Sequence record: SRR9188677_168
DNA: 64,000 nt
Strand: one strand, 5' to 3'
Shown: piece by piece, positions 2,629-37,143 of the stretch
Layout of the letters: the number at the start of each line of letters is the position of its first letter
Position numbering within the stretch: position 1 is the first letter of the stretch
Made by a program: the position numbers and the translations under genes
Notes under the pieces: model-generated
What the model saw: only the letters and a program-made list of their open reading frames with translations
Database searches by the model: none
What the model was told of the DNA's origin: nothing

Positions 2629-4391
2629 TATTGCTCTCCCTTCAGGCGTGAACCGCTCAATGGGCTTAAAACCATTTCTGACAAGCCTTTGCCGTTCTCA
2701 ACCATAGGGAATACGTTCTCGGCCTGGTCGGTTAAAAAGTCCATAAATACAAACTTATCTTTTCTGGCGAACGCTTCTTTCAGTGCGCCTTCCACGTCTG
2801 CCGGATTGGTGATTTGCATACCGATATGACCGTATGATTCCGCCAGTTTCACGAAATCCGGCAGGCTATCCATGTAAGACTCTGAATAGCGGTTCTCATA
2901 GAAGAACTCCTGCCACTGGCGCACCATGCCCAGGTAACGGTTATTCAACAGGATCACCTTGATCGGTAATCCGTATTGCGCACAGGTCGAGAGCTCCTGG
3001 ATATTCATCTGGATACTGCCCTCGCCGGTAATACAGGCCACTTGTGCATGCTTGTCAGCAAACTGACAGCCCATTGCGTATGGCAAGCCAACGCCCATGG
3101 TGCCGAGTCCGCCTGAGTTGATCCAGCGACGTGGCTTGTCAAATTTATAGTATTGCGCCGCCCACATCTGGTGCTGACCCACGTCAGAAGTCACGTATGC
3201 TTCGCCATTGGTCACTTCCCACAACTTCTGTACTACATACTGAGGCTTGATCACGGTGTCTGAATAAGTGTAATCCAGCGATTGCACGCCACGCCATTCA
3301 TTGATCTGGTCCCACCAGTCAGCAGTGTCTGTGGTTTTGTTTTCTTCCTGCGCCAGAATTTCTACCATATCAGCGAGCACAGACTGTACGTCACCCACGA
3401 TAGGCACATCCACTTTTACGCGTTTGGAAATGCTCGAAGGGTCTACATCAATATGAATGATGGTGCGTTTCTGGCCTGAAAAGTGTTTCGGGTTGCCGAT
3501 CACTCGGTCATCGAAACGCGCGCCAACTGCCAGCAACACGTCACAGTGCTGCATCGCCATGTTGGCTTCGTAACTGCCGTGCATACCGAGCATGCCGACA
3601 AATTGTTTGTCAGTCGCAGGGTAGCCACCCAGACCCATCAGTGTATTCGTTACCGGGAAGTTGAGCGCTTTGGCTAATCTAACCAGTTCAGCTGAACCAT
3701 TACCTAATACCAGGCCGCCGCCGGTGTAAATCATCGGACGTTTGGCACCCAGCAGCAATTTAACTGCTTTCTTGATCTGGCCGCTGTGGCCTTTCAAAAT
3801 CGGGCTGTAAGAGCGCATCTCTACCGTTTTCGGGTAGATAAAGTCGGCAATGTGCGCAGTAATGTCTTTAGGAATATCTACCACTACCGGGCCTGGACGG
3901 CCGGTTTTGGCGATAAAGAACGCCTTTTTAATCGTAGGCGCAATATCTTTAACGTGTTTAACCAGAAAGTTATGTTTTACACAGGGGCGGGTGATACCAA
4001 CCATGTCCACTTCCTGGAATGCATCCATGCCGATGGCTGGAACCGGTACCTGTCCACTGATCACAACCAAGGGAATAGAATCCATGTAAGCAGTGGCAAT
4101 GCCGGTCACGGCATTGGTGGCACCAGGACCACTGGTCACCAGGGCAACACCTACATCACCTGTCGCGCGTGAATATGCATCTGCGGCATGTACGGCAGCC
4201 TGCTCGTGACGCACCAGAATGTGCTTGAAGCCATTCTGTTTGTAGAGTGCATCATATATATGCAAGACAGCACCACCCGGGTAGCCAAATACGAATTTGA
4301 CTTTTTCTTCATTCAGGCAGTTGATGACGATATCAGCACCAGTCATAGATTTGGTGTGAGAGTCGGTCGCAGAGTGGGCTGAAGAATCCAT
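2628..4391 (-). CDS. ilvI: Acetolactate synthase large subunit
   Basis: FGYPGG, RHEQ, TSGPGATN, SGGLGTMG and TPP motif GEGS...NN. Confidence 0.96.
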   Translation of the reverse strand: MDSSAHSATDSHTKSMTGADIVINCLNEEKVKFVFGYPGGAVLHIYDALYKQNGFKHILVRHEQAAVHAADAYSRATGDVGVALVTSGPGATNAVTGIATAYMDSIPLVVISGQVPVPAIGMDAFQEVDMVGITRPCVKHNFLVKHVKDIAPTIKKAFFIAKTGRPGPVVVDIPKDITAHIADFIYPKTVEMRSYSPILKGHSGQIKKAVKLLLGAKRPMIYTGGGLVLGNGSAELVRLAKALNFPVTNTLMGLGGYPATDKQFVGMLGMHGSYEANMAMQHCDVLLAVGARFDDRVIGNPKHFSGQKRTIIHIDVDPSSISKRVKVDVPIVGDVQSVLADMVEILAQEENKTTDTADWWDQINEWRGVQSLDYTYSDTVIKPQYVVQKLWEVTNGEAYVTSDVGQHQMWAAQYYKFDKPRRWINSGGLGTMGVGLPYAMGCQFADKHAQVACITGEGSIQMNIQELSTCAQYGLPIKVILLNNRYLGMVRQWQEFFYENRYSESYMDSLPDFVKLAESYGHIGMQITNPADVEGALKEAFARKDKFVFMDFLTDQAENVFPMVENGKGLSEMVLSPLSGSRLKGEQ

Positions 4392-4539
4392 AAAATCTTG
4401 ATTATTATGCTAATTAATGTTGAACCCTATACATTAGCTTGCTTTGGTAGTTTGGTCAAGATTATCGCGGTTTACACAATGTATTTGAAACAGTGGGTGG
4501 ATAATTGCAAAGAGTTTGCAAATAATTGTTGACTTTCTA

Positions 4540-4558
4540 AATGAGAAACATTATCATT
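4540..4558. promoter_or_regulatory. Fur box overlapping promoter of the hyp-rpsD2-hemP unit
   Basis: AATGAGAAACATTATCATT matches the 9-1-9 Fur consensus AATGATAATnATTATCATT; TTGACT -35-like hexamer at 4529-4534. Confidence 0.8.
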
Positions 4559-4589
4559 TAACCACTGATTGAAGAAAGTTAACCAAACG

Positions 4590-4898
4590 ATGCAAACTGA
4601 ATTAGCTGTCGAAGCAAGTGATCTTTTTGATCCTGACCTGCCAACAGCCAGCGCAGTACTTGTATCGTTGAGTTGTGTAGCAACCCGCTATGCGGTCAAT
4701 CCTTCCGAAGACCTTGCATTGTTGGGATGCAGTTTGGCGCAGACATTAAACGCGCCAGAGTATGCGGAAAGCCATTTGATTGAATCGGCGGCGAAGCAGT
4801 TGTTACAGGATTGGCAGGCGCTTTTACAGGCGCATCGTGAATTTTCATTGCAGCAGGAAGTCACGGATTTTGTCACCCCCTCTTCAACTTTACAATAA
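4590..4898 (+). CDS. Hypothetical helical protein, first gene after the Fur box
   Basis: ORF 4569-4898; ATG at 4590 preferred; no recognised family. Confidence 0.65.
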   Translation: MQTELAVEASDLFDPDLPTASAVLVSLSCVATRYAVNPSEDLALLGCSLAQTLNAPEYAESHLIESAAKQLLQDWQALLQAHREFSLQQEVTDFVTPSSTLQ

Positions 4899-5591: not shown

Positions 5592-5784
5592 GAAATGCTT
5601 CGAGCAGCCCGAAGGCTGCTCGAATAAGAGTTTGAGCAATGCTCCTAACCCCAACATGTCATTGCTCAAATAGGCGTTGTTTTTTATGCGCCAAATTACC
5701 CCTGGTAAGGGTGTTCCTTGAAATCTGATGCCGCTGTGCTTTTGCATGTAAGTCGGCTTTTTTTTGGGGTCCAATCATATAGGA

Positions 5785-6015
5785 ATGAATAGCCAAATGC
5801 AACCTTTGTCTGGCAAAAACCCATCGCTGGTACAGGTTTCGGGCGCGCCTCTGGCTGTGATCGATGCCGTGCAACTTCTGGGTAATGCGTCAGGGGTGGT
5901 TATTTTGCATGGCAATGAAACCTATAAACTTACGCGCACCAAGCAAAACAAATTATTGTTAACCAAATGCCACCATGAAATTGTGGATGGCAGCCTTGGT
6001 ATTCATGAATTGTAA
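5785..6015 (+). CDS. hemP: Hemin uptake protein HemP/HmuP family
   Basis: VILHGNETYKLTRTKQNKLLLTK matches the HemP core; start uncertain (5785 or 5797). Confidence 0.82.
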   Translation: MNSQMQPLSGKNPSLVQVSGAPLAVIDAVQLLGNASGVVILHGNETYKLTRTKQNKLLLTKCHHEIVDGSLGIHEL

Positions 6016-6174
6016 GTTTTGTGATCTGATTTAATTCCTGGTTGTCTTGGTAATGTAGCCGAGAGATTGCTGCTGAATGACTAACCTTGCTCTAGTCATA
6101 GATAACGTTGTTGGGCAAAGTCACTGAATAATTTTACTTTTAACGAACTCAATGTCATTCTTTGAGTAAATTGA

Positions 6175-6193
6175 TATGATAATGATGCGCATT
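6175..6193. promoter_or_regulatory. Fur box upstream of tonB
   Basis: TATGATAATGATGCGCATT (reverse complement AATGCGCATCATTATCATA). Confidence 0.65.
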
Positions 6194-6233
6194 AACTTGC
6201 CTTCTGGCTATTTTTCTACAAGTATGAGGATGG

Positions 6234-7100
6234 GTGTGGATGTTTCAGCGTGAATTGATAACAGGGTTGCCCCTAAGGCCTGCGCAGCAACGTGTGCCCA
6301 AGGTTCCTGAGCTGAGCTTGCATCATCGTCAACCTGCACAATTGGCAGGCATTTTTAGCTGGCCAAGCTTCGCGACTGAAGCCTGGTTAAGACAAGATAA
6401 AGGCCAACGCTGGTCTATTGTAGGTTTGCTGACCGTCATTTTGCTACATGCAGCCCTGGTCTGGTGGGTGTTTATACAGGCCGAAACGCCAATCAAGCCA
6501 CCTAAACCAGAGCCGATCACGGTTTCCCTGATTACCCTGCCAGCAAAAAAAGAAGAGGCGCCTGCGCCAGAAGTAGTCCCTATCATCAAGCAAAAACCGG
6601 TTGAAAAACCTGTCATCAAACCCAAAGAAACACCGGTTAAACCAGTAGAGCGTCCAACGCCCGTGGTTGAGCGGATTGTCGAGCCTGTAGCGGATCAGCC
6701 AAAGTTTGAAGCCAGTACCCAGCCCGCAGCACCACCAATGGAAGCGCCAGTCGCGGCTTCAGCCAAACCGGCACCAGCGCCAGCTGCTCCTCCCAAGCAA
6801 GAAGTTGTTGAAGAAAAAGAAGAGCCGCCTAAATTCGGTGTGGCTTACCTGAATAATCCTCCTCCCGAATATCCCAAGCTGGCCAAACGCGCCGGCGAAG
6901 AAGGGCGTGTATTGTTAAAAGTACTGGTGTCAGCCGAAGGTCGTCCGGAAACGGTAGAGGTTTCAAAAGGCAGTGGGTTTGAACGCCTGGATACCGCGGC
7001 CTTAAATGCAGTGAAACAATGGCGGTTTGAACCGGCGCGCAAAGGTGGAAAAGCATTGAGTGCTTATGTCATTGTGCCATTAGCGTTTACGTTAAATTAA
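6234..7100 (+). CDS. tonB: Energy transducer TonB
   Basis: TM helix with LLHAAL, Pro/Lys/Glu-rich linker, C-terminal YPKLAKRAGEEGRV...WRFEPA. Confidence 0.93.
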   Translation: MWMFQRELITGLPLRPAQQRVPKVPELSLHHRQPAQLAGIFSWPSFATEAWLRQDKGQRWSIVGLLTVILLHAALVWWVFIQAETPIKPPKPEPITVSLITLPAKKEEAPAPEVVPIIKQKPVEKPVIKPKETPVKPVERPTPVVERIVEPVADQPKFEASTQPAAPPMEAPVAASAKPAPAPAAPPKQEVVEEKEEPPKFGVAYLNNPPPEYPKLAKRAGEEGRVLLKVLVSAEGRPETVEVSKGSGFERLDTAALNAVKQWRFEPARKGGKALSAYVIVPLAFTLN

Positions 7101-7151
7101 TTATCAAGTTTGTACTAAATATTAAAAGTTTGATTGGAAAGGAATTTTTTA

Positions 7152-7892
7152 ATGGAATCTACGAGCGGATTGGCTTTTATCACTGAAGGTGGCGTTGTGT
7201 CAGTGATCGTGGCGCTGATTTTACTGACGATGTCAGTATTAAGTTGGTATTTTGTGGTTGTGAAATCCTGGCAGGTATTTAAACACAAACGCCAGGTTTC
7301 CGAGTATGTGCGTCAGTTCTGGCGTAAATCGACATTGCAGGAAGCAATGCAGGAAACACAGCATCATTCCCCAGCTTATAAACTGGCGCAGACAGCCGTA
7401 GAGTCTACCCAGCATCACCAGCAATATGCGGCGCAATCATTAGGTGCTGCATGCAGCCAGGATGAGTTTATTGCCAGACAATTGCGTCGTACCTTGTCGC
7501 AAGAGCAGGCCGGACTGGAGAGCGGCCTTTCCGTACTGGCTTCAGTTGGTAGCGTGGCGCCATTTGTAGGTTTGTTTGGTACGGTGTGGGGTATTTACCA
7601 CGCGCTGACTGCCATTGGTCAATCTGGGGTTGCCACAATCGATAAAGTGGCCGGCCCGGTGGGTGAAGCATTGATTATGACGGCGATTGGTTTGGCTGTC
7701 GCTATCCCTGCAGTATTGGCATACAACGCATTTATTAAAGCGAACCGCGGCATTATGGCCGAGCTGGAAAGTTTTGCCCAGGACCTGCATACCTTGCTGA
7801 CGACAGGGGCGCCGCTGATGATAAAGCCAGGCAGTAAGTCCAATGTCCGCGAGTTACACACCAGAGTAGTGAATAAAGGTGGCAATCCATGA
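7152..7892 (+). CDS. exbB: ExbB (MotA/TolQ/ExbB family)
   Basis: APFVGLFGTVWGI and EALIMTAIGLAVAIPA; ATG 7152 preferred. Confidence 0.92.
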   Translation: MESTSGLAFITEGGVVSVIVALILLTMSVLSWYFVVVKSWQVFKHKRQVSEYVRQFWRKSTLQEAMQETQHHSPAYKLAQTAVESTQHHQQYAAQSLGAACSQDEFIARQLRRTLSQEQAGLESGLSVLASVGSVAPFVGLFGTVWGIYHALTAIGQSGVATIDKVAGPVGEALIMTAIGLAVAIPAVLAYNAFIKANRGIMAELESFAQDLHTLLTTGAPLMIKPGSKSNVRELHTRVVNKGGNP

Positions 7893-8308
7893 TCGGTAAT
7901 AATCCATTCAGCGCGGGCGAGCACACGCAGCCGATGAGCGAGATCAACACCACGCCGTTAGTGGATGTGATGCTGGTGCTGCTGGTGATTTTTATCATTA
8001 CTGCCCCTTTGCTGACGCATGCAGTAAAAATTGACCTGCCGCAGGCGACTTCACAACCGCTGGAAGAAAAGCCGGAAGTGATAGACCTGGCTGTAGATGC
8101 CGATGGCAAGATGTTCTGGAACGATACGGAAATTGATCAGGCTACCCTGGTGACGCGTATGAAGGACGAAAGCGTGAAAAAAGAGCAGCCGGAGTTGCAG
8201 ATACGTGCCGATAAAAATACCCGGTATCAGGTGCTGGCTGAAGTATTGGCACAAGCGCAAACCGCAGGGATGAAAAAAGTTGGTTTTGTCAGCCAGCCAC
8301 AGCAGTAA
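7889..8308 (+). CDS. exbD: ExbD
   Basis: EINTTPLVDVMLVLLVIFIITAP and IRADK motifs; overlaps the exbB stop. Confidence 0.93.
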   Translation: MIGNNPFSAGEHTQPMSEINTTPLVDVMLVLLVIFIITAPLLTHAVKIDLPQATSQPLEEKPEVIDLAVDADGKMFWNDTEIDQATLVTRMKDESVKKEQPELQIRADKNTRYQVLAEVLAQAQTAGMKKVGFVSQPQQ

Positions 8309-31453: not shown

Positions 31454-32077
31454 ATGCAGCTTTTATATACGGTTAACAGTCCTTATGCACGCAAGGTTCG
31501 CATCGTTGCCATCGAAAAACACATTGATCTCACATTAACTAGTGTCGTGCTGGCTGAGCCTGACTGTCCTGTCAGTCAATTCAACCCGCTGGGCAAAGTG
31601 CCGGTGCTGGTGCTGGATGATGGTGAAAGCCTTTATGACTCGCGTGTCATCGTCGAATACCTGGATCACCGTACGCCAGTGGCTCATTTGATTCCACAGG
31701 ATCATCTGGCCAAAATCAAAGTGCGTCGCTGGGAGGCCTTGGCTGATGGTGTCTGTGATGCAGCGGTTGCGGTGATGCAGGAACAGCGTAAACCTGAAGC
31801 GCAGCAAACAAGCGCCTGGATAGAGAAGCAAATGGCTAAAGTAGTCGCCGGCCTGACGGCATTAGATAACGATCTCCTCAAGAAAAAGTGGTGTGTCAAT
31901 GAAACATTCAGCCTCGCCGATATTGCCTTGGGTACCACGCTGGGTTATATCGATTTGCGTTTCAAGAGTACCCAATTAGAGGGTAAATACTGGCAGGAGA
32001 AGTTTCCTAACCTTGCCAAACATTATGGCGTGCTGGTCAAGCGCCCAAGCTTCAAACAGACCATGCCGCAACCGTAG
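31454..32077 (+). CDS. Glutathione S-transferase family protein
   Basis: SPYARKVR, NPLGKVPVL, LYDSRVI. Confidence 0.9.
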   Translation: MQLLYTVNSPYARKVRIVAIEKHIDLTLTSVVLAEPDCPVSQFNPLGKVPVLVLDDGESLYDSRVIVEYLDHRTPVAHLIPQDHLAKIKVRRWEALADGVCDAAVAVMQEQRKPEAQQTSAWIEKQMAKVVAGLTALDNDLLKKKWCVNETFSLADIALGTTLGYIDLRFKSTQLEGKYWQEKFPNLAKHYGVLVKRPSFKQTMPQP

Positions 32078-32271
32078 AAAAACAGCTTCCAGACAATAAC
32101 AGTCTTGAAGCTATTATCTTTTTTGTTGCAGTCAAGACTGCAATCACATTTAGCTAAGTTGAATTGTCATTTCAATTTAGCTGTCATTAAGCCGCTAGCC
32201 ACCGGTCACGTTAAATGTTGTAAAAAGTTCCATTGATCACTATAAGTCTTAAATTTCCCGTTGATAATACA

Positions 32272-32290
32272 AATGATAATTGTTATCATT
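32272..32290. promoter_or_regulatory. Fur box at the promoter of the orphan/PEP-CTERM unit
   Basis: AATGATAATTGTTATCATT inside the palindrome CAAATGATAATTGTTATCATTTG; TTGATA -35-like at 32261-66; identical to the box at 15240. Confidence 0.9.
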
Positions 32291-32325
32291 TGAGAATACA
32301 GTATTAATTAACGGTTAAAAACTTC

Positions 32326-32526
32326 GTGATGGATGCCAGCGTGCCACTAAAAAAAAGATTGCTTGAATTAGTCGATGAGCTAATTGCGCATGATGGTTTT
32401 GGCAGCATCAAGGTAGATATTCGTCTTTTAAAGCGCGGTCAGAAGGAAGTGATTATTGATTGCGGAAAGCAGTATCGATTTGTGGTGGATTTTCAGCCTG
32501 CTGCAGAACTAGCTGACAGCAAATAG
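32326..32526 (+). CDS. Small hypothetical protein (66 aa; helix followed by beta strands)
   Basis: First ORF after the Fur box; protein-like sequence HDGFGSIKVDIRLLKRGQKEVIIDCGKQYRFVVD; weak RBS; start 32326 or 32329. Confidence 0.7.
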   Translation: MMDASVPLKKRLLELVDELIAHDGFGSIKVDIRLLKRGQKEVIIDCGKQYRFVVDFQPAAELADSK

Positions 32527-32550
32527 CTCGCTGGTTGGTTGAATTAAATC

Positions 32551-32880
32551 GGGGATATTTCCCCAAAAGTTCCGACGGCATGGGGCCGTGGAAATGTTGA
32601 GTTGAGTAGTTCGCCCGCAAGCGCCTTCATGAGGAAGGGTCAACGGCATTATCCATGGCACCTTGTTTCTACTTGGGTTTCTACCTAGGTTTCTACGTGG
32701 TATTGCATGCTTATGTTCATAAGCATCATCTCGCCTCTGATTACATACTCAACAAGACATTAAAAGATTCGTTTATCTGCAGGACTTATGTCTTGTAGAG
32801 CAGCATATGCTGCAAACGAGCATGCCAGCTACCTCTAACTAGGAGAAGAGGGGTAGCCGGTTTAATGGGCTTGTGCCCGT
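32551..32880 (+). ncRNA. Candidate structured cis-regulatory RNA or ncRNA of unknown family
   Basis: Non-coding gap packed with stems, several with G-U pairs and nested closure (see findings); folding judged by eye. Confidence 0.5.
32665..32700 (+). repeat. 3 x 12-bp imperfect tandem repeat (GTTTCTACnTrG)
   Basis: GTTTCTACTTGG / GTTTCTACCTAG / GTTTCTACGTGG. Confidence 0.9.
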
Positions 32881-32900
32881 ATGACTATGGAGAAGAAAAA

Positions 32901-33827
32901 ATGATGAATCAACTAAGTTTCAAACCACTTTCAATCGTTGCATTGACTGCTTTCAGTCTGAATATTGGCTCGGCTTTCGCTGCGATACCTACCGGTATTC
33001 AGGATGCTATCCCTGTCGCTAAATCGCTGAATGGTACTAAAAAGGATGACGGCTGGTATAACCTGAGCGCAGCTTCTCAAACCAAAACGGTGGATGGTAC
33101 GCCGGTTACGATCGCTGGTATCCCTGGTGGTGGCTTCCCGGGTACAGCACCACTGCCTAATGTGGTCTCACAGGTTAAATCTGACACTGACAATTCAGCG
33201 ACTTTCAGAAAGGTGAGCAATGGTGCCGCAGGTGGCGCTTTCCCATCAAGTGAAAGTCTATATGCCGGCTCTTTCAGCGGTGCTTACAATTTTAACGGCG
33301 GCAAGCTGGGTGTGTTTGAAACTGCGCCTGTTGAGAATCTGGCCAACGTAGTATTTCAGGTAGAGCTTGGCGGCGCCAATGGTTATGATTTTTACCAACC
33401 TTCTGTCGGGGCTACAATTACAGCGGGCGGGGCTTCAGCCTTGTCGGTAGGTGCTTTAACCGTGACCAACTACTTCCCTACACTCAACCTGACATTTGGA
33501 GATAACACAACAACCCAGTTATCTGCCAACTGGGCTGAACTGAGCACCAAAGGCCAGAACGGTACAACAAGTGCTGGCGGTACTGAAGAGCCGATTTACA
33601 TCAACCTGTATGCATTCCAATGGGATCTGAGCGGCTACAGCAATATTTCATCGTTCAATGTGATTTTCGATGTGGTCGCTCACAGTCAAACCTACGCAGC
33701 CCGCCTGACACAGAGCGACACGTTCAATCAAGTGGTTGCGGTACCAGTGCCTGAACCAGAGTCATATGCAATGATCCTTGCGGGATTAGGCTTGATCGGC
33801 TTTGCAGCACGCCGCCGTCAGGTTTGA
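32901..33827 (+). CDS. PEP-CTERM sorting-domain surface protein 1
   Basis: Signal peptide; C-terminal VPEPESYAMILAGLGLIGFAARRRQV; ATG 32901 follows GGAG. Confidence 0.9.
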   Translation: MMNQLSFKPLSIVALTAFSLNIGSAFAAIPTGIQDAIPVAKSLNGTKKDDGWYNLSAASQTKTVDGTPVTIAGIPGGGFPGTAPLPNVVSQVKSDTDNSATFRKVSNGAAGGAFPSSESLYAGSFSGAYNFNGGKLGVFETAPVENLANVVFQVELGGANGYDFYQPSVGATITAGGASALSVGALTVTNYFPTLNLTFGDNTTTQLSANWAELSTKGQNGTTSAGGTEEPIYINLYAFQWDLSGYSNISSFNVIFDVVAHSQTYAARLTQSDTFNQVVAVPVPEPESYAMILAGLGLIGFAARRRQV

Positions 33828-34066
33828 TACAAGAGCCAACGTTGAGAGATAAAAGACCTGTTGTCATTTGAAGGTCTTTATCTCGCTCTAGGCAACCCTC
33901 CGAAAGTCGCTGGTTGCCCACATAAGCGTTAAAGGTGTTTGTCCATGCTTAACAAGCATGGAAATTAAATACTCGACGGTGTGAGTCCGTGAGGCTTATT
34001 TTGAGGTAAATGGCGTATCACCTTCAAGAGGAAGGGACTTATGCGCTGTAAGAGGAGACTTATAAA

Positions 34067-34726
34067 ATGAAATTATCAGCTTTAGCTTTGGCTTTGGGTA
34101 TGGCATTCAGTGGTTCTGCATTTGCTGCAGCGGCTACCTGGAACTCCGCAACACCATGGGGTAGCGATGCTACTGCATCTTTTGCGCAGTGGAGTGCTAT
34201 TGAATCTATCAATGACACTACTCCGGATGCCGGTTTTAGCGGTGCCACTTCTGCTTCGTTGCGTGAAACATCCGGCAACGGATTCGTGACTGGTGGCGGC
34301 CTGGGTGGCAACATCTACAGTTTTACAGGCACAACAACGTTCACCGCTACTTTGGGTGGCGGCGCGACTACGGGTTTATTTGATGTGTACCTGCGCATCG
34401 GTACCATTGGTGAGGTTGCAGGTACATCAGCAACTTTAAATGGTACTGCAGCCACTTCAGTCGTGTGGGATGGTGGTGCAGCAGGTGGTCCATTTGGTGG
34501 TGCTGCGCAAGAGGTGTACTGGAAATGGGAAGACGTTACAGCATCCAGCCTGTATACATTTAACTTCGCTGCTATTGGTCCTCACATGAGTCTGGATCAA
34601 GTGGCGCTGGCAACAGTTTCTGTGCCGACAGTCACTCCTGTACCAGAACCAGAAGCGTTCAGCATGATGGCACTGGGCCTGGGTCTGATGGCATTTGTTG
34701 CACGTCGTTCTTCCAAAAAAGCCTAA
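34067..34726 (+). CDS. PEP-CTERM sorting-domain surface protein 2
   Basis: Signal peptide; C-terminal VPEPEAFSMMALGLGLMAFVARRSSKKA; GAGGAG RBS. Confidence 0.9.
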   Translation: MKLSALALALGMAFSGSAFAAAATWNSATPWGSDATASFAQWSAIESINDTTPDAGFSGATSASLRETSGNGFVTGGGLGGNIYSFTGTTTFTATLGGGATTGLFDVYLRIGTIGEVAGTSATLNGTAATSVVWDGGAAGGPFGGAAQEVYWKWEDVTASSLYTFNFAAIGPHMSLDQVALATVSVPTVTPVPEPEAFSMMALGLGLMAFVARRSSKKA

Positions 34727-34809: not shown

Positions 34810-37143
34810 ATGTTGGCAAGCCTTAAATATTACTGGCAATTCACAAAAACAAAGAACATTCCAACTATGTGGCTTTGTGGTCTGGTCGTTTTAGCGACAT
34901 TGTTAATTACCAGTCCGCATGTATCAGCAGCAGAAGATGCTGCACAAGAAGAGTCGCAAACTAAAGCGGTAAACACGCTCTCGCCAGCGGTGCCTCAACA
35001 GACTGAAACGGACAAGTTAGAGACCTTACCTGAGGTATCTGTCAAAGACAAAAGAGTCATTGAAAATTCAGGCATCAACCGGACACTTCCAATTACAACT
35101 ATCACGTCTGACCAGTTACAGCGTAGTCAGCCTAGCAATATCTTTGATGCCGTGCGATCAGCTCCAGGCGTATCTATCAACGGCGGTCCCCGCCCAAGTG
35201 GTATGTCATTCAATATTCGAGGCTATGAGGACAATGAAGATGTGCTGGTCAAGGTCGATGGAGTACCTAAAGGGTTTGAGAAGTACCGGATGGGTGGCAC
35301 ATTTATTGAGCCAGAATTACTTAAAAGTATAGAGATTCAACGCGGTCCGCAAATTGCCAGCGGATCAGGCTCGTTGGGGGGAACCGTCATCGCAAATACT
35401 AAGGATGCCGAAGATTTTTTGAAGCCTGGTCAGAAATATGGCGCAAAAGTCAAATTCGGCTATGGTAATAATAGTGATGAGTATTCCCGATCCTATTTAC
35501 TGTATGCCAGGCCTGATGAGCGAGTGGATATTCTTTACAACTATTCAAACAGGACTGCCAATAACATTACATTAGGTGATAATTCCAAGCTGGCAAATTC
35601 AGCGATACAGTCAGTTTCTCATCTACTGAAATTCAGTCTTTTTCCGACTGAGGATTTGCAGTTGGTCACTTCTATAGTTAAGTTTGAGGATTCAGGACTG
35701 CAGCAATATGATGTGAATTCCGCGACGCCAGGTTTCTTTGGTAAAACTATTCGCTCCGTGGACGATTTCACATGGTCTGAAACCGTAAAGTACAATCCAG
35801 ACCATCCATGGGTGAACCTTAAAGCTATTGTAGGTGCTGGACACTCGGATGTTGAGGATTTTTTCCCGCCAGGATTCTCTGATGTGGTAAACCGGGCTCA
35901 ACCTGATTGTAACGGGATTATTTACATACCTGATCCAAGCAACACTGGAATATGCAGGGGTAATGCCACGGATACTTACAACTTCAAAACCAGGACTGTC
36001 GATATTAGTAATGAGGCGATTTTTGCCGAGAAGGGGTTTTTCAATGTCTCATTATTAACTGGTTATCAATATAATTTCAGTCATCGCGATGTGACTCGCG
36101 TTTTTGATAATGCGGTGATTAGCCCTGTCGGTGGCTTTAATCCTGCTGTCCCACCCGGAACGAAAACCTTTCATGCGATTTATATCCAGCCAAAATTTGA
36201 AATTGGCCAGGTAAGTATCATTCCTGGCTATAGGCAGGATATATATAAAGTAGAGGCAGATGGCGGCACATTAGCTTTGCTGAGACGCTTTGGTCAAGAA
36301 AGTAAAATAGAGTTCAAAGAAGAAACCTGGAGTTTAGGGTTGGCCTATGATTTTTTTGATAGAAAAAATCCAGAGAAACTGACGCTTTACAGCAATTATG
36401 GACAGGGATTCCGTCCGCCTTTGATCGATGAGTATTTCACACAAGGCCCATTTGGTTTTTGCAGATCAGCATTTATGCCGACACAGGGAAGACCTTCAGA
36501 AATTTGTGGTGATTACTACAAACCACAATTGTCCGAATCGACGGAGGCCGGCGTAAGTTATCAAACCCCACATCTGCTTGGCACCGATGTATTTTTCACC
36601 GGCAAGCTTAATTTCTTTCATATCAATACTTCAAGATTGCTCTCATCTTTAGGTGAGGATAATGGGCGTGTGACGCAGGATGGCTGGGAGCGCAGAAATG
36701 GGGTTGAGATCGAAAGCTTTGTCCAATACAAAAGCTTATATGCGCGTGCCGGATACTCTCGGATTACAGGAGAGCAGGTCACAGGTCATCTCGATTTGAT
36801 TAATACGCCACTTTTCACTGCGCCTGGTAATACCTTCAATTTGAATGTCGGCGCTGAATTAAGCAAGAGTGTCGATATCAACTTAACTTACAGGAGGGTC
36901 TCAGAGAGGGACATCATTGTCGGTGGTTCTGGGACACTCCTTAATCCCTACAGATTTGGTATCCAGGATGGATATGAATTATGGAATGCCGGTGTCCGTT
37001 GGAAGGCCAGCGAACAACTAACGTTCAGATTGATCGGGGAAAATCTGAAGAATGAGTTTTATAACCTGAATGGTTCATTCGGATCTCTTGGTTTGCCAGC
37101 GCCTGGCCGTAATGTCAAATTTCTGGTCGAGCTGACATATTAA
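34810..37143 (+). CDS. TonB-dependent receptor, heme/hemoglobin-receptor-like
   Basis: PGVSINGGPRPSGMSFNIRG plug, FIEPELLKSIEI.RGP, FRPP (FRAP-like), C-terminal PAPGRNVKF.VELTY. Confidence 0.85.
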   Translation: MLASLKYYWQFTKTKNIPTMWLCGLVVLATLLITSPHVSAAEDAAQEESQTKAVNTLSPAVPQQTETDKLETLPEVSVKDKRVIENSGINRTLPITTITSDQLQRSQPSNIFDAVRSAPGVSINGGPRPSGMSFNIRGYEDNEDVLVKVDGVPKGFEKYRMGGTFIEPELLKSIEIQRGPQIASGSGSLGGTVIANTKDAEDFLKPGQKYGAKVKFGYGNNSDEYSRSYLLYARPDERVDILYNYSNRTANNITLGDNSKLANSAIQSVSHLLKFSLFPTEDLQLVTSIVKFEDSGLQQYDVNSATPGFFGKTIRSVDDFTWSETVKYNPDHPWVNLKAIVGAGHSDVEDFFPPGFSDVVNRAQPDCNGIIYIPDPSNTGICRGNATDTYNFKTRTVDISNEAIFAEKGFFNVSLLTGYQYNFSHRDVTRVFDNAVISPVGGFNPAVPPGTKTFHAIYIQPKFEIGQVSIIPGYRQDIYKVEADGGTLALLRRFGQESKIEFKEETWSLGLAYDFFDRKNPEKLTLYSNYGQGFRPPLIDEYFTQGPFGFCRSAFMPTQGRPSEICGDYYKPQLSESTEAGVSYQTPHLLGTDVFFTGKLNFFHINTSRLLSSLGEDNGRVTQDGWERRNGVEIESFVQYKSLYARAGYSRITGEQVTGHLDLINTPLFTAPGNTFNLNVGAELSKSVDINLTYRRVSERDIIVGGSGTLLNPYRFGIQDGYELWNAGVRWKASEQLTFRLIGENLKNEFYNLNGSFGSLGLPAPGRNVKFLVELTY

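Follow-up and report, generated by a model that had tools for sequence, protein, structure and literature searches.

The 64,000-nt stretch of DNA analyzed here (sequence record SRR9188677_168, hereafter the window) comes from Methylophilus and contains, at positions 32527–32900 of the plus strand, a 374-nt spacer between the stop codon of a 66-aa open reading frame (ORF) and the ATG (32901) of a PEP-CTERM gene. This spacer is a real, conserved and structured leader with an RNA motif that has apparently not been described before and is coupled to a likewise undescribed family of small proteins. The motif is an element of about 100 nt in which two hairpins, P1 and P2, display a common R-N-G-R-G pentaloop. 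It probably sets the amount of cell-surface protein that is made.

The Spacer Is a Folded, Non-coding RNA Leader

A sequence-only reading of the window had proposed that the spacer holds a new cis-regulatory RNA of no known class. Our analysis agrees with this proposal: no Rfam family or repeat was matched, covariation was present and the folding energy was far beyond that of shuffled sequences; regulation as such we infer from the anatomy of the locus. On the plus strand the minimum free energy of the spacer was −136.8 kcal/mol, compared to −106.95 ± 5.56 kcal/mol for 100 shuffles (z = −5.37), none of which folded as well; on the minus strand z was −3.26. The fold was thus clearly better than that of the shuffled controls against which the reading had wanted it measured. 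The comparison with Rfam 15, which the reading had also suggested, returned no family for the window, the spacer or 14 related loci. At gathering score there was no match in the entire 64-kb window, at E ≤ 10 nothing fell within the spacer and three chance-level rows lay elsewhere in the window, and at E ≤ 0.1 no match was obtained among the 14 related loci. Matches to the spacer occurred in 7 of 41 genomes of the genus, a single one in each, and it is therefore no repeat element.

The identity of the spacer to both relatives G030 and G004 was 88%, compared to 82% for the GST gene, 82 and 70%, respectively, for the 308-aa gene that follows it, 89 and 86% for the small gene, and 65–66% for the intergenic region 5′ of the small gene. 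The spacer is therefore conserved to a degree equal to or above that of most of the flanking sequence. A 47-aa ORF (32655–32798) and the TTG ORFs over the motif were considered as genes and rejected, as their frames and lengths vary among the relatives, whereas even third positions show no nucleotide changes; indels of 2, 24, and 36 nt within 12-nt repeats of the spacer also count against coding. No promoter-like site was found within the spacer in the scan and, from 32000 to 33100, no terminator-like site on the plus strand, the sole one being on the minus strand. An intrinsic terminator or attenuator was rejected, as the transcribed strand of the spacer shows no GC-rich hairpin with a U-run.

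Four runs of RNA libraries were searched. Three metatranscriptome runs gave one short low-depth contig each, and a raw-read run gave no reads. Two of the contigs, from one study, end at 32548 and 32553, adjoining the first hairpin of the spacer (H0, see below), and the third covers 32779–32926. These contigs are too few to speak for transcription, ends or processing, and they may stem from DNA carry-over.

The spacer is a genuinely folded RNA leader, ordinary in kind, namely a cis-regulatory 5′ untranslated region (UTR). As a refinement of the sequence-only reading, its 374 nt consist of two units instead of one, a widespread motif of about 100 nt and a clade-specific part of about 240 nt.

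The Motif Combines Covarying Stems With Invariant Loops

Two copies of the motif are present in the window, both on the plus strand. Copy 1 (32569–32669; covariance model R1, 70.5 bits, E = 1.3e-19) comprises P1 (32571–32592), a bulged hairpin with the loop C-AUGGG-G, and P2 (32624–32638), CCUUC-AUGAG-GAAGG. Copy 2 (33970–34066; R1, 86.4 bits, E = 1.1e-24; fold z = −3.40), with P1 at 33972–33993 and P2 at 34021–34035, lies directly before the Shine-Dalgarno (SD) sequence and ATG of a 219-aa PEP-CTERM gene and thus outside the region on which the sequence-only reading had reported.

For P1, 36 of 46 distinct instances were aligned; left out were near-identical instances (L027 copy 1, L028 copies 1 and 2, L031 copy 1, L040, L079, and L080) and long-linker forms (L055, L069, and L071). 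In these 36 sequences 100% of the cells were paired, compared to 43–59% in slid controls, and four of the seven pairs were changed on both sides (C-G in 21 and U-A in 15 sequences; U-A in 20 and C-G in 16; C-G in 35 and U-A in 1; A-U in 29 and G-C in 7). The covariation score was matched by none of 500 shuffles. In an alignment of 58 distinct sequences, which was fitted to R1 and hence is biased towards the structure of R1, 99.1% of the cells were paired, and both-side changes were seen in five of seven pairs of P1 and four of five pairs of P2 (9 of 12 in total). The covariation on which the sequence-only reading had made its proposal depend was thus found, both in the motif stems and in the long-form extension described below.

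The inner loop of P1 reads G/A-Y-G-R-G, two positions of which are G in 55 of 55 sequences (a 7-nt loop region with a 5-nt core, present in 55 of 58), and the loop of P2 reads R-N-G-R-G, with G3 in 54 of 54 (a 5-nt loop in 54 of 58). P1 also carries a bulged purine, and the linker between P1 and P2 ranges from 3 to 52 nt. As the stems vary and the loops are fixed, the pattern is the reverse of that of a DNA operator. Our literature search found neither the motif nor the small protein described; supplementary lists of RNA motifs may contain a mention. Queries combining PEP-CTERM with RNA-motif or riboswitch terms, or with Fur, iron, TonB or Methylophilus, gave no paper containing PEP-CTERM among the matches listed.

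The Motif Is Linked to the Small Gene

In a BLAST search of 361 genomes of the family, other genera matched the 5′ part of the spacer only (~32571–32653). Five of the matches in other genera were weak (E = 0.006–0.0095), and one of the genomes concerned, G183, has a strong R1 match elsewhere. In these genera the small gene is followed, after ~60–130 nt, by the SD and ATG of a PEP-CTERM gene for a protein of ~220 aa.

Further loci were gathered via the small protein: of 171 stretches 139 were confirmed (species-level), and the best 80 of these 139 were used. Over the window and these 80 loci R1 gave 70 hits, every one on the gene strand. Counted per locus, 54 had a full-length motif just downstream of the small gene, 5 had P2 only, 1 had a weak hit and 20 had none. 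The element lies downstream of the small gene in Methylophilus, Methylobacillus, Methylovorus, Methyloversatilis, Aquabacterium, and Leptothrix, and R1 hits were also obtained in Methylomonas and in metagenome-assembled genomes (MAGs) of Methylococcaceae, Chromatiales, and Nitrospira, the last with two copies. A count made without the model found at least two RNGRG hairpins in the 330 nt that follow the small gene at 50 of the 80 loci, compared to 1.7% of 2034 background windows; this count takes in an Ammonifex locus. In beta- and gammaproteobacteria as well as a Nitrospira MAG, homologues of the small gene are thus followed by the motif, and a Fur-box-like site usually precedes them.

Whole-genome searches with R1 in five genomes gave one or two hits each, all at the small-protein locus. 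Among 151 Methylophilaceae genomes sampled, 22 contained the motif and 21 the small protein, and every one of the 21 protein-positive genomes had the motif. In G132, the one genome with the motif alone, completeness is 76% and the start of the contig falls within the upstream gene. Motif and small protein therefore co-occur almost perfectly in Methylophilaceae. In one Methylophilus genome (G026, C5:78157-78626) the small gene contains TAG/TAA stops and the adjacent motif reaches only 38 bits, which suggests joint decay of the gene and the RNA element.

In Methylobacillus an extra copy of the motif heads a separate PEP-CTERM/receptor unit with its own Fur-box-like sequence, 3.2 kb upstream of the small gene. 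One such locus (L127, G178:C1) shows two units, at 860–1067 and 4140–4590, each with a Fur-box-like site, the motif and a PEP-CTERM gene; the small gene occurs in the second unit only, with three paralogous PEP-CTERM genes and a second receptor gene behind it.

The gene after the motif encodes a protein of 207–247 aa in 19 of the 24 loci for which an ORF was returned; in the remaining five, which are GC-rich, a spurious overlapping frame was picked. These proteins (34067–34726 in the window; L043, L054, L071, L091, L096, and others) share a conserved N-terminal W(D/N)..PW...(Y)AEW(N) without a Pfam domain, and their tails are PEP-CTERM-like or VPLPA-like, the Methylomonas and Nitrospira versions being VPLPA-like. 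The Pfam PEP-CTERM signal was detected in one further downstream protein and in none of the Nitrospira and Methylomonas ones.

The Clade-Specific Extension Keeps Its Pairings

The rest of the spacer (32663–32900) is an extension of ~240 nt that occurs only with the 308-aa PEP-CTERM gene it precedes. It was found in seven Methylophilus genomes and in two metagenome/MAG contigs with a readable leader. Relatives of the 308-aa protein are present in 8 of the 361 family genomes, namely the seven Methylophilus genomes and G132, in which the start of the contig falls within the gene. Two further relatives, L138 and the divergent L139 (protein 63% identical), came from one metagenome scan. Across eight long-form sequences the 84 pairs were 93.9% paired, compared to 37–47% with the 3′ partner slid, and seven pairs had changes on both sides; among 500 shuffles, 1 attained this number. 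As MAFFT misaligns parts of L139, these pair counts are conservative. In the window 6 of the 84 pairs are G-U.

All structures that follow lie on the plus strand. Just past the stop codon of the small gene stands H0 (32551–32564), a GC-rich hairpin GGGGA/UCCCC that is present in 8 of 8 clade sequences and has no U-run after it; in other genera its place is taken by GC-rich hairpins that differ from it. A long-range helix, P3 (GUUGAGUA/UACUCAAC, an inverted repeat at 32601–32608 and 32746–32753), encloses P2, a repeat hairpin and H4, and competes with the proximal UCAAC at 32640. This pairing, which the sequence-only reading had offered as an alternative or pseudoknot, is invariant in the clade, and in L139 it becomes GUUGAGUU/AACUCAAC by a swap of A-U to U-A that the centroid fold also contains. 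The repeat hairpin (32660–32701) consists of three 12-nt tandem repeats GUUUCUACNNNG (32665–32700), identified in the repeat family search. The number of copies is one in G036 (two overlapping contigs) and L138, three in most sequences, five in G004 and about three, with a 2-nt deletion, in G030; the base helix ACCWUG/CRUGGU is kept. The assembly of G036 breaks exactly at these repeats, which behave as a length-variable hairpin within a conserved RNA.

H4 (32707–32726, AUGCUUAU/AUAAGCAU) was 98.1% paired, with one pair changed on both sides, and is replaced by GCGCUCAAUUGAGCGC in L139. A three-way junction UCGUUU/AAACGA (32769–32819) holds H5 (32776–32799) and H6 (32800–32813). In H5 three pairs were changed on both sides and several changed between G-C and G-U; the hairpin is absent in L138, and L139 has other hairpins at the junction, including GCCCUUCGGGC. 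H7 (32825–32860, CCAGCUACCUCU/AGGGGUAGCCGG), with a 12-nt loop containing AGGAG, was 92.6% paired, with two pairs changed on both sides and five on one side; L139 reads CCUCC-AUGAG-GGAGG there, an RNGRG pentaloop again. The last hairpin, H8, GGGC-UUGU-GCCC, is followed by the SD GGAGAAG (32889–32895; both together 32867–32895), and its stem is invariant except for one G-U in L139. L139 keeps the architecture of the extension with other sequences. An ATG at 32865 opens an ORF (MGLCPY...) across H8 that is in frame with the PEP-CTERM gene in the window; in G030 it stops at a TGA overlapping the main ATG and in G004 just past the main ATG. It could be a short upstream ORF or a mere by-product of the conserved hairpin.

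Most pairings that the sequence-only reading had drawn by eye recur in the relatives: GGGGA/TCCCC, CCTTC/GAAGG (which is P2), ATGCTT.../...AAGCAT, GCTACCTCT/AGGGGTAGC, GTTGAGTA/TACTCAAC, TCGTTT/AAACGA with its two inner hairpins, and GGGC/GCCC. GGCATG/CATGCC, which it took to close a domain, was not retained: GGCATG belongs to the covarying P1, and CATGCC changes without compensation in G004 and G036. Its pairing GGGGCCGTGGA/TCCATGGCACC is possible, and is the choice of RNAalifold, but is mutually exclusive with P1, which covaries across genera. RNAalifold prefers a helix of GCCGUGGAAAUGUUGA with UCAACGGCAUUAUCCAUGGC that competes with P1, the helix alternative to P1 being GCCGUGGA.../...UCCAUGGC, and its consensus contains a possible anti-SD pairing of CUACGUGGU (32693–32701) with ACUAUGGAG (32884–32892). 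The segments of both candidate pairings, the competing helix and that of CUACGUGGU with the SD region, are invariant in the clade.

The Locus Encodes a Small Conserved Protein and PEP-CTERM Proteins

All genes of the cluster lie on the plus strand. The small gene (32326–32526, 66 aa) belongs to an uncharacterized, very conserved family. Upstream of it lies a sigma-70-like promoter TTGATA-17-TATCAT (32261–32289, scan score 10/12), overlapped by a perfect 10-nt inverted repeat (32270–32279/32283–32292; feature 32261–32292) that forms a Fur-box-like palindrome agreeing with the 19-nt Fur consensus at 14 of 19 positions. Of 80 homologous loci, 56 had a site upstream of the small gene that agreed with this consensus at 13 or more positions, compared to 3.2% of 1268 control windows. 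The first PEP-CTERM gene (PEP1, 32901–33827, 308 aa) and the second (34067–34726, 219 aa) scored 38.7 and 28.5 bits, respectively, with the PEP-CTERM sorting signal PF07589 (cut-off 20.7 bits). Neither protein reached the cut-off of a named NCBIfam PEP-CTERM subfamily, and the generic sorting-domain model TIGR02595 was matched by the 308-aa protein only (19 bits, cut-off 16). A TonB-dependent receptor gene (34810–37143; Pfam Plug and TonB_dep_Rec) is the last gene of the presumed operon in which the PEP-CTERM genes lie; with the heme/hemoglobin receptor subfamily it reached 241 bits, under the cut-off of 317 bits. The cluster thus consists of the small protein, two PEP-CTERM proteins and a TonB-dependent receptor, and starts at a promoter with a Fur-box-like site.

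For the 66-aa protein no family was found in Pfam or NCBIfam, and the ESM Atlas contained unnamed clusters only. At E ≤ 0.001 it had 495 relatives; among the 120 relatives listed, those with names were almost all called "hypothetical protein", plus three other automatic JGI labels. Conservation is strong across phyla, with invariant His21, Cys45, and Tyr49. An AF2 model (predicted local distance difference test score 83.4) shows one helix and a three-stranded sheet, and its best structural neighbors are RNA-binding alpha-beta-beta-beta folds, with weak scores: the best Foldseek match was the DGCR8 chain of a Drosha-DGCR8/pri-miRNA complex (E = 0.031, prob 0.99), followed by SRP9/14 (Z = 4.4–4.6) and the double-stranded RNA-binding domains of R2D2/Staufen (Z = 3.4–3.9, root-mean-square deviation 1.4–1.7 over 45–46 residues). 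Sequence searches of Pfam and the PDB recognized no RNA-binding domain; the best PDB match, a zinc-finger fragment (E = 0.13), was judged to be chance.

HemP was considered as an identity of the small protein and rejected. Six family members gave no hit to PF10636 (HemP) at E ≤ 10, while the same library gave 45.3 bits for a true hemP in the window, and an hhalign comparison of the set A6 with nine HemP sequences gave a profile-profile probability of 2.7% over 20 aligned columns. This canonical hemP (5794–5967) is followed by tonB (6234–7100, TonB_C by Pfam) and by two ORFs (7134–7892 and 7889–8308) that were taken as exbB and exbD by position and sequence only (hemP-tonB region 5764–8308). 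The genome therefore carries both the hemP and the small gene, which are unrelated. In a Burkholderiales genome (G394, C1:68331-72735) a canonical hemP match and the small-protein gene also occur together, ~4 kb apart on the same strand.

Comparison With Known Regulatory Systems

The small proteins HemP/HmuP/ChuP regulate heme uptake; ChuP binds heme and was proposed to regulate positively, at the post-transcriptional level, through the HmuP-responsive element (HPRE) in 5′ UTRs, and both transcriptional and post-transcriptional mechanisms are cited for the family, so that its mode of action is unsettled (PMC9131926). In our literature search, "HPRE" or "HmuP-responsive" occurred in the relevant sense only in this ChuP paper. 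Like HemP/HmuP/ChuP, the small protein stands first in a Fur-regulated iron-uptake cluster with a TonB-dependent receptor downstream, conserved elements lie in the leader of the next gene, and in Aquabacterium-type loci the small gene holds the position of hemP before hemS. Unlike HemP, it has no PF10636 match, and a canonical hemP is present separately in the window. The two HPRE sequences that PMC9131926 quotes, for Chromobacterium violaceum chuR and vbuA, are GCCAGCC-type repeats; in a comparison by eye, the present motif differs from them in consisting of RNGRG hairpins, and the genes it serves are PEP-CTERM genes instead of heme-receptor genes. All that is common to both is a 9-nt identity, CCCGCAAGC (32614–32622), with the first 9 nt of the quoted chuR HPRE (rough chance p ~0.03), which may be meaningless.

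Other systems show partial likeness. ANTAR targets consist of two hairpins with hexaloops (A1/G4), the second of which overlaps a terminator, and CsrA binds GGA hairpins. The present motif resembles such leaders in its two tandem hairpins near the SD, its covarying stems and its conserved loop positions, which would suit a dimeric binder. It differs from them in its R-N-G-R-G pentaloops and, from ANTAR targets, in that no terminator overlaps it; the small protein has no ANTAR or CsrA domain. Iron-responsive elements, the targets of aconitase/iron regulatory protein, share with the motif a base that bulges out beneath a conserved loop and a location in the untranslated regions of iron-related mRNAs. 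Their bulge is a C and their loop CAGUGN, compared to the purine bulge and RNGRG loop of the present hairpins, which moreover come in pairs. Like the riboswitch and motif classes of Rfam 15, the element is a structured, covarying 5′-leader element tied to one gene family, but none of these classes matches at gathering score or at permissive E-values.

Proposed Mechanism and Alternative Explanations

The reading we prefer, and which we regard as quite possible though somewhat short of likely, is that the leader belongs to a Fur-controlled operon and that the twin hairpins dock a trans-acting factor, most likely the co-encoded small protein, which would control PEP-CTERM expression post-transcriptionally. 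Such control would resemble HmuP/HPRE, to which the system shows no kinship in sequence. Fixed identical loops on covarying stems, duplication of the module, strict locus specificity and co-inheritance with the small gene argue for a trans factor docking on RNA, and the Fur-box-like sites, hemS and the TonB context point to iron or heme. Trans action is plausible, with copies before each of the two PEP-CTERM genes and a separate Methylobacillus unit 3.2 kb away. The factor would most likely be a dimer of the small protein, an idea suggested by the twin loops, and the protein might sense heme or iron, as its invariant His and Cys suggest. Binding would change the folding of the leader and thereby translation initiation and/or mRNA stability of the PEP-CTERM genes, adding a second, post-transcriptional layer atop Fur repression. 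The linker GUUGAG has two possible partners, the proximal UCAAC and the distal ACUCAAC (P3), and the SD is touched by helices close to the 3′ end. In the Methylophilus long-form clade the motif lies 263 nt from the start codon, and an effect would therefore need a relay through the 240-nt extension.

Several observations weigh against this docking reading. A uniform switch in which P1 frees the SD was unsupported by thermodynamic modelling of 36 leaders: with P1 forced, mean SD accessibility rose no further than from 0.37 to 0.44, and a clear effect was confined to the short forms of Methylophilus and to motif copy 2. Such predictions are fragile, as some P2 probabilities near 0 in GC-rich leaders show. 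The leader of L139 folded no better than its shuffles (z = −1.57). For the protein model, all Z were <5 and no Foldseek match reached E ≤ 0.001, which is under the level for a safe claim of a shared fold; such scores can reflect perhaps a common arrangement only. By hand count the small protein has 11 K/R and 11 D/E, and so is not basic. HemP-family proteins are cited as DNA-binding activators in two species (PMC9131926), so the analogy to them cuts both ways. Gathering loci via the small protein inflates the apparent linkage outside the whole-genome tests, and among 151 genomes sampled order-wide the small protein occurred in eight, four of which had no R1 hit under strict filters; R1 hits occurred in five genomes, four Methylophilaceae and one with a 25.9-bit hit but without the small protein. 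Two of three readable protein-positive loci outside the family without R1 showed divergent hairpins before the PEP-CTERM gene. Six Aquabacterium-type loci have the small gene without the motif; in these the small gene stands directly before hemS (PF05171, E = 2e-75; e.g., L052).

A riboswitch would also account for a conserved, covarying P1-P2 in the 5′ UTR, beside the SD in short forms, for the pairings that compete with P1 in several subgroups and for a small protein without a recognizable RNA-binding domain. P1-P2 would then be the aptamer for heme, Fe2+, another metal or a metabolite linked to PEP-CTERM or TonB, and the small protein merely a co-regulated neighbor. We consider this unlikely: two simple, similar terminal loops, not junctions or internal loops, hold the conserved nucleotides, the hairpins are separated by a linker of variable length (3–52 nt), the loop consensus recurs in a third hairpin of L139, and the presence of the motif tracks the small gene genome by genome in Methylophilaceae. 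Still less probable is an element of mRNA processing or stability, in which H0, P1, and P2 would be entry or blocking sites for RNases that uncouple the amounts of small-protein and PEP-CTERM mRNA with no dedicated sensor. Plain stabilizers need neither invariant loops, nor a bulge, nor a twin arrangement kept strictly from Betaproteobacteria to the Nitrospira MAG. The position of H0 after the stop codon without a U-run, the hairpins of other sequence in its place in other genera, the contig ends at 32548 and 32553 beside it and the contig at 32779–32926 would fit such a role, but this RNA evidence consists of three low-depth contigs, maybe DNA carry-over.

That the leader is the target of a trans-acting small RNA (sRNA) or a general RNA-binding protein (e.g., an iron-sparing sRNA with a chaperone), or that a stable sRNA is cut from it, seems very improbable to us. 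The sequence-invariant P2 arms CCUUC/GAAGG do look like an SD/anti-SD pair and the leader lies within an iron-regulated cluster, but the motif was found at one locus only in the whole-genome searches of five genomes, leaving no wider regulon, and the loss together with the small gene in G026 would be left without explanation. According to work cited in PMC9131926, HemP/HmuP of Bradyrhizobium and Burkholderia were described as DNA-binding activators, and the inverted repeats might in the same way be operators, possibly for the small protein, or an internal promoter region. To this we give hardly any credence, since the arms covary and the center is conserved, G-U pairs are in use (6 of 84), no promoter-like site lies within the spacer and the orientation is always that of the genes.

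Returning to the docking of the small protein on the twin hairpins, a broader version of it is conceivable, which we hold to be rather doubtful. Here a highly conserved protein of ~65 aa with His and Cys, representing a previously unrecognized RNA-binding type, would read twin RNGRG hairpins and switch on the exosortase-sorted (PEP-CTERM/VPLPA-CTERM) proteins that accompany TonB-dependent receptors. This would be a broad post-transcriptional iron/heme system, an analogue of HemP/HPRE without sequence kinship, to which the Methylophilus clade would have added the 240-nt relay.

The element is a candidate RNA family absent from Rfam 15. Since its RNA signature is unusually clean, with a pair of covarying hairpins that carry the same invariant loops, the hypothesis of RNA binding can be put to a direct test. 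The locus presents a second, unrelated small-protein family in the genomic role of HemP/HmuP/ChuP, and it connects PEP-CTERM surface proteins, a large family that has been left unstudied, with iron-regulated TonB systems of methylotrophs, of relatives of Aquabacterium and Leptothrix, and of a Nitrospira MAG.

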